Origin: Mobula hypostoma
Taxonomy: Eukaryota
Assembly (NCBI RefSeq): GCF_963921235.1
Contig: NC_086097.1
Coordinates: forward strand, 5,828,001-5,892,000
Direction: 5' to 3'
Length of the DNA: 64,000 nucleotides
This document shows positions 13,775 to 18,477 of this stretch, piece after piece; position 1 is the first letter of the stretch, and each line of letters opens with the position of its first letter. The position numbers and the translations under genes are program-made. Under the pieces are notes generated by a model that was not told the origin of the DNA, searched no databases, and saw nothing but the letters and a program-made list of their open reading frames with translations.

Positions 13775-14495
13775 ATTATCATACTTCATTGATCCCGAGG
13801 GAAATTGGGTTTCGTTACAGTTGCACCAACCAAAAATAGAGTATAAATATAGCAATATAAAACCATAAAAAAATTAAATAATAATATGCAAATTATGCCA
13901 GGAAATAATTCCAGGACCAGCCTATTGGCTCAGGGTGTCTGACCCTCCAAGGGAGGAGTTGTAAAGTTTGATGGCCACAGGCAGGAATGACTTCCTATGA
14001 CGCTCTGTGCTGCATCTCGGTGGAATGAGTCTCTGGCTGAATGTACTCCTGTGCCCACCCAGTACATTATGTAGTGGATGGGAGACATTGTCCAAGATGG
14101 CATGCAACTTGGACAGCATCCTCTTTTCAGACACCGCCGCCAGAGAGTCCAGTTCCATCCCCACAACATCACTGGCCTTACGAATGAGTTTGTTGATTCT
14201 GTTGGTGTCTGCTACCCTCAGCCTGCTGCCCCAGCACACAACAGCAAACATGATAGCACTGGCCACCACAGACTCGTCGAACATCCTCAGCATCGTCCGA
14301 CAGATGTTAAAGGACCTCAGTCTCCTCAGGAAATAGAGACGGCTCTGACCCTTCTTGTAGACAGCCTCAGTGTTCTTTGACCAGTCCAGTTTATTGCCAA
14401 TTCGTATCCCCAGGTATTTGTAATCCTCCACCATGTCCACAGTAACCCCCTGGATGGAAACAGGGGTCACCGGTGCCTTAGCCCTCAGCCTTAGG
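13775..14495 (-). mobile_element. Young 5'-truncated Rex1/Babar-type LINE
   Basis: Open ORF ..YKYLGIRIGNKLDWSKNTEAVYKKGQSRLYFLRRLRSFNIC..; near-identical to the copy at 38060-38955. Confidence 0.88.
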
Positions 14496-14729
14496 CTGGG
14501 AAGTAAACAAGTAACACACAGAACATCCATGCTTCATCCAGAGGTGCATCGACGATGCTGCTCCCCAGATGTCAGTCAGGGTCTTCCCGAACCAGAAACC
14601 CTGGATTAATAGTTCCATGCAATCAGCACTTACAGCACGACATAGAGCTTCCATTGCTGGCAATCAGCAGGAGCTGAAGAAAAGCAGCTATAAGCTGCAC
14701 AAAGCTATCAAGGCTACAAAACAGCAATA

Positions 14730-15959
14730 CAGTCAGCCCTCCGTTTCCGCGGGTTCTGCATCCGCAGGTTCAACCAACCGCTCATCGAAAATATTCAAAA
14801 ACATTCCAGAACGTTCCAAAAAGCAGAACTTGAATTTGCCGTGCACCGAGCACTACGCTGAATCCACGCGAATGAAGTGATGTGCAGGCATACCCCGCTG
14901 TAGCCTCCCGCCATTTCAACAGATCCCCAGTCTCTCTCCAGCACTGTTCACCTCCTGTCTCGCTCGTTTGCTACTTGTGTTGTGAGCGAGAGGAAGGAGT
15001 TTACGGCTGGTAAGGGATGGCGGGCCTCGAGAACTTAAAGATCACGGGAGAATCGGCAGCGGCTGATGCCGAGGCAGCTTCAGCGTTCCCAAAAGAGCTA
15101 CGATGGTTGTGTCTGTACTGAACATGTACAGACTTTTTTTTTCTTGTCATTATTCCCTAAACAATGCAGTATAACAACTATTTACATTGTATTAGGTTCC
15201 AAGGTTGTCAAGCCGAGGAGTGGTCGTGGGGACAAGCTCCCACTACTGAAAAGTTCTTCCTTACGGCATGCGCCTCAAATAGCCTCTGACAACCAAGTCC
15301 AACTCCAGGCCTTCTCGTGTGGCTTAGCCTCTAAGCCCGGTGGAACTGTTTCTACTGACAGGAGAAGGGGCGAAGGCAGGTCCTGGCACCTTAAAACCAG
15401 TGCTTCGGGTAGAAGGAGCTCGTCAGCCTGGGAAGGCAGTCCATCTCAGAGAGAGGAAACTCTGAATTCAAACCTCCGCTGCCTTGCGGCCATACCCACT
15501 CATGGGAAAGGTGTCAGGAGTAAACCCTGAGGACAAATCCAGAGCTGGAGTCCCTAAGGCAGTCCAACATTGCCTTCAACCTCGTTCTGGCAACTCCTGC
15601 GACGACACTGGTGCCAAGCTGTATTGGTCCTTTCCCTTCCCTTGGACAACATCGGTGTCATGGAGAGGGGAGACTTGCTGCATGGGCAACTGCCGGTCTT
15701 CCATACAATCTTTCCCAGGCCTGCACCCTGGAGAATCCAGGCACAGATCCATGGTCTCGCGAGACTAACGGATGCCACCAGTGTACCAGTACATTGTATT
15801 AGGTATTATAAGTAATCTAGAGATGATTTAAAGTATACGGGAGGATGTGCGTAGGTTATATGCAAATGCTACACCATTTTATATAAGGGACTTGAGCATC
15901 TGCAGATTTTGGTATCCACGGGGGGTCCTGGAATCAATCCCCCGCGGATACCGAGGGAC
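14730..15959. mobile_element. Tigger3(Golem)/MER2-like pogo-family non-autonomous DNA transposon
   Basis: Follows TA (14728-14729). TIRs cagtcagccctccgtttccgcggg and cccgcggataccgagggac. Internal blocks gtactgaacatgtacagactttttttt and gtaatctagagatgatttaaagtatacgggaggatgtgcgtaggttatatgcaaat match the MER2/Tigger3 consensus as I recall it. Confidence 0.85.
15198..15789 (+). mobile_element. Non-coding retroposon (probably RTE-derived, non-autonomous)
   Basis: 15-bp TSD tacattgtattaggt at 15183-15197 and 15790-15804; a second copy lies at ~45425-45900. The clade assignment is an inference. Confidence 0.75.
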
Positions 15960-18477
15960 AAGATTGAGTCAGAATTCACAATGAATAGCACACGTGACTT
16001 GTGATGAGGGCTGCATAACATCACAGACTTCAAAGCCAAACGTTATGGTCCCACCAACATTGCAGTCTCTCTCCCAGATGAACTCAATCGCTTTTACGCT
16101 CAGTTCAATGTTGCTAACTCTGAGCCTCCGAGGAAAGCCAACGCCACAACCTGTAACCTGGTCGTCTCTGGGGCTGAGGTATGCAGATGTTTTCAACCAG
16201 TGGACAGCCACAAGGCTGAGGGATCGGATGGCATCCCAGAGTGAGTTCTCAGGATGTGCACAGCACAACTGGCAGGTGTGTTTTTTAATCTCTCCCTCTC
16301 CCAATGTAGAGTGGCTTCCTGCTTCAAATTATCCACCATTGTCCCTGTACCAAAAAAGACCAAGGTAACATGCCTGACTGACTGGTGTCTTGTCACACTC
16401 ACCTCAAGCAAATGCTTTGAGAGGTTGGTCAAGGATTACATCTGCAATATGCTACCACCCAAACTGGACTCCCTACAATTCACCTTCCGACACAACCGAT
16501 CGACAGATGATGCAATAGCCATTACTCTACACACCGTCCTTACACATCTGGAGAAGAAGGATACTTATGTGAGAATGCTGTTCTTGGACTACAGTTCAGC
16601 ATTCAACACCATAATTCCATCCAGACTTGACTGGAAGCTTAGAGACCTCGACTCTGACCCTGCCTTGTGCAACTGGTTCCTGGACTTCCTGTCAGATAGC
16701 TAGCAGGTGGTAAGAGTGGGCTCCCTCACCTCCACCCCTCTGGCTCTCAACACAGGAGCTCCTTATGGCTGTGTACTAGGTCCCCTCCTTTAATCCCTGT
16801 ATACCCATGACTATGTCATCACCCATAGCTCTAATCTGCTAATTAAATTTGCCAACAACACTACATTGATTGGATTAATCCCAAACAATAATGAGGTGGC
16901 CTACAGGGAAGAAGTCATCTCTCTAACGCAGTGCTGTCAAGAAAACAACCTCTCCCTCAATGTCACAAAAACAAAGGAGCTGGTTGTGGATTACAGGAGG
17001 AATGGAGACAGGCTAGCCCCTATTGACATCAATGGATCTGGGGTTGAGAGGATAAACAACTTTAAGTTTCTCGGCATAAACATCACCGAGGATCTCACAT
17101 GGTCTGTACACACCAGCTGTGCGGTGAAAAAGCCACCTCTTTCACCTCAGATGGTTGAGGAAGTTTGGTATGGGCCCCCAGATCCTAAGAACTTTCTACA
17201 GGGGTACAATTGAGGACATCCTGACTGGTTGCATCACTGCTTGGTATGGGAATGGTACCTCCCTTAATCGCAGGACTCTATAGAGTGGTGCGGACAGCAC
17301 AGCGCATCTGTAGTTGTGAACTTCCCATGATTCAGGACATTTACAAAGATCTGATTCACTCCAACCACAAACTATTCCAGCTGCTACCATCCAGGAAGCG
17401 GTACTGCAGCAGAAGAGCCAGGACCAACAGGCTCCAGGACAGCTTCTTCCACCAGGCCATCAGACTGATGAACTCATGCTGATTTGAGTGTATTTCTATG
17501 TTACATCGACTTTTCTATTTATTATAAATTACTATGATTGCACATTGCACATTTAGACGGAGACGTAACGTAAAGATTTTTGCTCCTCACCTATGTGAAG
17601 GATGTAAGAAATAAAGTCAATTCAATTCAGTTCGATACATGAACAGCAGAGTCCACGAGAGTGAGTTCACAGGCTCAGGGAGCCAGTTCAGCACGAGGCA
17701 AGTGATACCGGTCCAGGAGCCCGATGGTTGCTGGCCACAGCCATGGAGTCAGATGAATGTTGAGGTGAGTGCAGTGGTCCAGGGCCCGCTGGCTGCACTG
17801 AGTCGAGTACCAATGGCTGCAGGCCACAGCCACCGGGCCAGTGCAGTGCTCCAACCGGTCCAGGAGCCCGATGGTGGCAGGTATCAGCCACAGGGTCAGT
17901 AGAGTGCCACAGATGGTCCAGGGCCCTGATAGTTGCAGGCCACAGCTACTGTCTGTTCAGCAGTGAGGCGAGTAAAACCTCATAAGGTAGTGAGCGGAAT
18001 ACCAGCCAGTGATGTTCACATCCTATAAACAAATGCTGAAAAGTAATAAATAACAGAGTGAGGAGCCGGACTTGTTACACTGATCAGATCAAATAAGATG
18101 TGAGGAAAAGCATTCACAATTGTACCCTGTAATAGCCTCCCCTATGGTTTACTGATCAATTCTTCAAAATTCCAGTTGTCTTTTCAGCTACTACAACATC
18201 TTTCATCATGCATGAATATTTAAGTACTTTGGAGACTGTTGGAGTAGTGACTTGAGAATTGATGTGCTAATTTCATGCCAAATAGAAAGAATATAATGGT
18301 TTCACAGTAGGCAAACAAGCTGATTATCAGCATTGTATGCTTCCATTGCTTTAAATTTACCTATTTAAATATTGATATTAAGCAGGGGAAAATCTTTATT
18401 GAAAGAGACATATTCAATAAAACAATAATTTCCAGTTTTTTGGTATAATTTCCCATAACCTAATCTATTTTTCAAGT

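Follow-up and report, generated by a model that had tools for sequence, protein, structure and literature searches.

A dead Tigger-type miniature transposon nested in a LINE of the ray Mobula hypostoma: possible kinship with human MER2/Tigger3 and a possible horizontal origin

The window, a stretch of 64,000 nucleotides from the genome of the ray Mobula hypostoma, contains at positions 14730-15959 a dead, non-autonomous pogo/Tigger copy of the ~670-bp type, with both end regions present and no coding capacity. The identity of the element and the history of this copy, as a pogo/Tigger derivative with a LINE host, a nested retroposon and a tip deletion, are regarded as practically certain. The left copy of the TA target-site duplication is found at 14728-14729; TA also flanks other copies of the element and is present in the empty LINE site. 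The left part of the element (14730-15197, plus strand), defined from the sequence and the alignment of copies, consists of an inverted repeat (about 14730-14753) and the 5′ non-coding region. In the alignment it shows three small internal deletions relative to other copies. The right part (15805-15959, plus strand), defined by the same alignment, consists of the 3′ non-coding region and a truncated right inverted repeat (15941-15959), and its 155 bases are 83-95% identical to nine other copies.

The first bases of the element, CAGTC at 14730, lie immediately 3′ of the left TA. Inverted arms at 14737-14753 and 15941-15957 were paired by a repeat finder over 17 nt, with 88% complementarity. All nine copies aligned with the window copy carry TA on both sides and the termini CAGTC...GACTG. 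The original prediction described a TA-preceded element with terminal inverted repeats; the left TA, the CAGTC start and the 17-nt arms agree with this description, although the right end is damaged and its TA is gone. The end of the element is ambiguous within 15955-15959, because GGGAC is common to the element tip and the LINE.

Positions 14988-15103 (plus strand) hold a remnant of the transposase frame, recognised by peptide comparison. It corresponds to about residues 132-177 of the closest database protein (referred to here as P0001), where the HTH_Tnp_Tc5 region ends. The remnant is broken in the window copy by a 22-bp deletion. In other copies the peptide is open over 46-47 aa, and the same peptide lies inside long frames of two further copies in the genome, L043 and L044.

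The host of the element is a LINE. The upstream part of its interrupted frame, ending in ..KATKQQY, occupies 14515-14729 (plus strand), and the downstream part, which resumes with KIESEF.. in an open frame, occupies 15960-17213 (plus strand); both parts are also recognised from empty-site copies. An RVT_1 domain is present at 16245-16700 (Pfam, E 4.3e-08). The left flank has 1,096 candidate copies in the same genome, of which 40 were scored, at 85-88% identity. The split reading frame, the RVT_1 domain and the number of flank candidates confirm the embedding in a local LINE that had been proposed from the letters of the window. On the minus strand, a 203-aa open frame at 13922-14533 abuts the host LINE and resembles the C-terminal part of another LINE reverse-transcriptase protein.

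Uninterrupted copies of the LINE read ..CAATAC..GGGACAAGATTGAG.. across the site in three of four 101-base stretches. From this reading it follows that the transposon entered the TA of that string, and that a deletion of 14 bp later occurred in the window copy, between a GGGAC at the element tip and a second GGGAC in the LINE. It removed the final 5 bp of the inverted repeat, the TA on the right and 7 bp belonging to the LINE. The 3′ tip of the window copy was lost by this small microhomology deletion.

The two parts of the element are separated by a local retroposon-like repeat at 15198-15789, which consists of about 583 bp and 9 variable bases at one end. This 592-bp insert is bounded by a perfect 15-nt direct repeat, found by the repeat finder, the left copy of which (15183-15197) is element sequence and 100% identical to the right copy (15790-15804). 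The repeat has 8,605 first-look candidates in the genome, and the 40 that were scored are 91-94% identical. Its ends recur unchanged in three other copies, one of the ends bears a tail that varies, and the target duplications of the family measure 12-15 bp, with one of 12 bp visible at the locus L150. No tRNA-like head was found in the repeat by ARAGORN or by an Rfam search of positions 14000-17000. In these features the repeat behaves as a retroposon. The expectation of a local retroposon inside the element is upheld by the perfect 15-bp duplication and by the size and identity of the repeat family. The LINE is the oldest of the three insertions, the Tigger-type element came next and the retroposon last. 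The element inserted at a TA within the reading frame of the older LINE and was later struck by the high-copy local retroposon.

The left 468 bases of the element were used as a query against the assembly from which the window comes (3.48 Gb, 200 contigs). The search returned 1,940 first-look candidates, of which 40 were scored. Other copies of the element account for 39 of the 41 places listed, at 78-84% identity and on at least 19 contigs. The common form of the family, taken from the nine copies aligned with their flanks to the window copy, is ~670 bp long.

These figures bear on the idea that human contamination or misassembly introduced a copy of the human repeat MER2/Tigger3 into the ray assembly, for which the presumed likeness to that repeat speaks and nothing else. 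The window lies within a 256-Mb contig (C1, 256,436,635 bases), and the family is spread as 1,940 candidates over at least 19 contigs. The window copy itself sits inside a LINE with 1,096 local candidates and is split by a repeat with 8,605, each bearing its target-site signature. The probability of contamination is therefore negligible; it had already been called unlikely, and the 39 other copies, the local LINE host and the local nested repeat exclude it.

The divergence of the family was estimated from 28 copies, namely the ten aligned copies including the window copy and 18 of 20 further copies; a fragment (L133) and an interrupted copy (L143) were left out. The alignment contains 44 CpG sites. 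The median Kimura distance to the majority consensus is 0.060 over all sites and 0.033 outside CpG, and the corresponding values for the window copy are 0.061 and 0.038. Medians were used because the structural variants L128, L134, L137, L139 and L140 have values inflated through misalignment (0.115-0.242). As the dated copies are the best-scoring ones, the divergence of 3-6% probably understates the mean age of the family.

Several deletion subfamilies are present in the genome. Another locus (L042 3240-4110, minus strand) holds a sister miniature element that is diverged and shorter and has TA on its flanks and changed inverted repeats; it is itself split by about 560 bp of other sequence. 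In sequencing runs, 21 of 24 rows hold fractions of 0.30-0.55 of 73 sampled words of one good copy, which is about the level of family-consensus words alone, since 39% of the 31-mers of that copy are consensus. The rows with words belong to nine studies, with organisms coded A to I and skin metagenomes, and are uninformative on taxa.

Autonomous copies were sought in the same genome, and decayed partners of ~2.3 kb were found, all with stop codons or frameshifts. A search with the remnant peptide, in which 150 of 1,684 candidates were scored, gave two places with the peptide in frames of 219 and 262 aa. The copy L043 is an intermediate deletion form. The copy L044 is ~2.3 kb long and contains the 5′ region of the element, the coding scrap and the 3′ region. 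Its matches to the element fall in three blocks, at element positions 73-254, 288-425 and 470-699, and the gaps between the blocks hold about 390 and 1,170 bases that the element lacks. Its frames read as a transposase broken by frameshifts, the pieces of which match HTH_Tnp_Tc5 (E 3.2e-10) and DDE_1 (E 2.2e-23) in Pfam.

The closest database protein, P0001, is an intact protein of 607 aa from a 2,416-bp contig and is 86% identical to the 219-aa piece. It carries the domains CENP-B_N, HTH_Tnp_Tc5 and DDE_1, all above the Pfam cut-offs. When it was used as a query against the Mobula hypostoma genome, 72 of 5,354 candidates were scored. Four places, 79-83% identical to P0001 and interrupted by 1-3 stops each, extend over most of it, between residues 1 and 583, and a fifth, with 6 stops, extends over residues 2-505. 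No open full-length transposase frame is present among these 72 best of 5,354 candidates, and it is on this account that the family looks extinct in the genome, as judged from the best-scored places.

Two other sets of loci were rejected as partners. A search of the genome for DDE_1 scored 150 of 1,718 candidates, and the 30 best loci belong to other pogo-like families, with at most 47.6% identity to the element peptide. The DNA matches in L021 and L037 are only adjacent short relatives. As a separate observation, the open frames of further pogo-like genes at four loci (L011-L014) run to 533-608 aa and match DDE_1 strongly (E 1e-42 to 1e-43). Their identity to the element peptide is at most 42%, and they may represent domesticated genes or Tigger families with recent activity.

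A mechanism can be proposed from the forms present in the genome. The ~670-bp form is an internal-deletion derivative of a pogo/Tigger-type transposon and retains both ends, the non-coding regions and a 46-aa scrap of coding sequence. The non-coding copies would then have been mobilised in trans, in the manner of the family to which they belong. The transposase of the partner would bind the shared inverted repeats, cut the element out and paste it at a new TA.

Sequence of the ray transposase also occurs at the start of a gene. Two GTF2IRD2A-like proteins, P0037 from Hemitrygon akajei and P0046 from Mobula hypostoma, share 87% identity, and both begin with the first ~184 aa of the ray Tigger transposase, 82% identical to P0001. 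This Tigger part comprises CENP-B_N and HTH_Tnp_Tc5 and is open in both species; after it, the proteins switch to GTF2I-repeat and hAT-like sequence. By mapping to the Mobula hypostoma genome, the Tigger-derived first exon was placed at C71:44639543-44640124 (plus strand), and the last exon at C71:44696698-44698659 (plus strand; P0046 residues 497-1150, 99% identity). The first exon corresponds to a Tigger copy 57 kb upstream of the last exon of the gene. The fusion may be either a captured DNA-binding domain or an artefact of the gene models. Should the Hemitrygon and Mobula genes be orthologous, activity of the family dates back to before the split between stingrays and devil rays. With orthology, the shared exon would rule out a recent transfer of the lineage, and an older transfer would still be compatible with it.

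Among 240 listed homologues of the transposase, the nearest that is named from a non-ray organism comes from a skink, at 73-76% identity; P0001 is 73.4% identical to the skink (Tiliqua) protein over 593 aa. Three of the 240 homologues are named from rays and none from primates. None is named from sharks, skates or chimaeras either, an absence of names that is weak evidence because gene annotation masks repeats. Old mammalian transposon fossils are likewise seldom annotated as proteins. Relatives in metagenome contigs were found at 77 loci, the longest match being 37% identical and short segments reaching 72%, and were left out of the analysis; a search of viral contigs gave none.

In a tree of 34 rows, obtained by a quick search with SH-aLRT support only and with several forks open, two ray copies fall together with P0001 and the skink clade. 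The next rows outward are contig-derived proteins and that of the nematode Trichuris, followed by a clade in which mammals and lizards are mixed. Mammals identified by name (elephant, dugong, donkey and opossum) belong to a clade neighbouring the ray group and are 59-63% identical to P0001, with 62.6% for the elephant and 58.9% for the opossum. The ray group stands apart from the fish, frog and hagfish rows, and the tree is thus incongruent with the phylogeny of the hosts. Paralogous Tigger lineages could also give a tree of this kind. The branch of P0001 next to the ray copies is very short, 0.052. As P0001 is intact and its branch is short, some organism holds, or recently held, a working copy of the lineage.

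It is somewhat favoured by these data that the Tigger lineage entered the ancestor of the myliobatiform rays by horizontal transfer. Points for such an origin are the tree, the published accounts of Tigger3 and of Tigger transfers, and protein identities that are out of step with host phylogeny, P0001 being 73.4% identical to the skink protein and 66.3% to that of Trichuris, as against 44.0% for catfish, 45.4% for hagfish and 35.6% for frog. The same identities speak against an alternative in which the lineage is a long-resident, vertically inherited one of cartilaginous fishes and the MER2/Tigger3 likeness amounts to the inverted repeats and a few common Tigger blocks and has been overstated. 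Such vertical residence would be in keeping with the several subfamilies and the diverged sister miniature element, with the 1,718 DDE_1 candidates of many pogo-like families, and with a Tigger-derived exon common to two ray families. It would also suit the limited identity of the closest named non-ray protein in the list, since 73-76% at the protein level is far from near-identity and could fit old paralogous lineages. The subfamilies, the sister element and the shared exon point to a long residence in rays and argue against a recent arrival. Transposons, however, seldom persist over hundreds of millions of years by vertical descent alone. The absence of shark, skate and chimaera names among the listed homologues also stands against vertical inheritance, as does the extent of the presumed MER2/Tigger3 likeness, which would cover long non-coding stretches and not the ends alone. 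Vertical inheritance is rated as unlikely, though it is a far more serious alternative than contamination, and an old horizontal transfer is preferred.

The horizontal transfer put forward in the original prediction hinges on a presumed near-identity of non-coding DNA with the human consensus. The ray consensus presumably resembles MER2 over both ends and the ~230 bp of the 3′ non-coding region, and longer Tigger3-type derivatives over part of the 5′ region. An identity of at least 90% between the ray consensus and human MER2/Tigger3 over the shared non-coding parts is considered fairly likely. The ray lineage is probably the same as that of the mammalian Tigger3/MER2 group.

Several searches for the element sequence elsewhere gave null results within their scope. 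A 23-base motif of the 3′ region had no match in public genome, viral and metagenome contig collections, and 246 bases of a good copy had none by BLAST against plasmids and phages. Rfam returned no match at E up to 1 over positions 14000-17000 of the window, and motifs of the element sequence were not matched in published paper texts.

A fuller history, which is put forward tentatively and is held to be slightly less probable than its negation, joins these elements. A Tigger3/MER2 lineage, with its non-coding parts nearly unchanged, would have invaded both early primates or placentals and the ancestor of stingrays and devil rays, passing between mammals of the land and cartilaginous fishes of the sea. 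In rays, its DNA-binding domain would later have been recruited, as exon one, into a GTF2IRD2-like gene whose frame has stayed open in two families of rays.

The patchiness of the Tigger3 group and the transfer of Tigger elements into cartilaginous fishes are already in print. In Anolis, families with ends like those of marsupial Tigger3 and Tigger4 have been described (PMC3014272). Thirteen Tigger transfer events have been claimed, including events of Eutheria with the two chondrichthyans Carcharodon and Scyliorhinus (PMC9219625, section 3.3). All fish events of that paper run via one mongoose assembly; the published transfers between Eutheria and sharks are therefore considered weak, as they rest on that assembly.

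If the presumed near-identity is true, one Tigger3-type lineage has rays among its hosts, in addition to primates, marsupials and lizards. A transposon would then have passed, in a clean case, between cartilaginous fishes of the sea and vertebrates of the land, and one would have to ask which vector carried it. With their slow molecular clock, rays would also keep the element in a far less decayed state than human DNA, where it is badly eroded, and the ray copies could help to reconstruct the history of human MER2/Tigger3. If the near-identity is false, the window copy is one more ordinary, dead miniature transposon of a genome rich in repeats.

Among known systems, the human elements MER2, MER2B and Tigger3 (Golem) share with the ray family the TA duplication, inverted repeats of the CAGT type, deletion derivatives and thousands of copies. 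MER2 and Golem/Tigger3 are listed as human repeats of the Mariner/Tc1 class (PMC5753468). The ray host is a difference, since Tigger3 has been described as specific to primates, with an age of 54-67 My (PMC5441408, citing Pace and Feschotte 2007). A coding scrap of 46 aa is retained in the common ~670-bp form of the ray, which sets it apart from human MER2/Tigger3, and the ray copies are only about 3-6% from their consensus.

With respect to the Tigger transfers of PMC9219625, the TA site and the ~2.3-2.4 kb length of the ray partner fall within the Tigger ranges given in the table of that paper. The table is without rays, and two 10-base end motifs of the ray element have no occurrence in the supplement. 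In comparison with the pogo/Tigger transposases annotated as 'tigger transposable element-derived protein 1-like', the same three domains are found in P0001 and, piecewise, in the decayed ~2.3-kb copy L044, whereas the window copy encodes nothing. SPIN and OposCharlie1 are DNA transposons that were horizontally transferred in tetrapods. A tree incongruent with host phylogeny, perhaps together with a patchy host range, is what the ray lineage has in common with the published transfers of DNA transposons among vertebrates.
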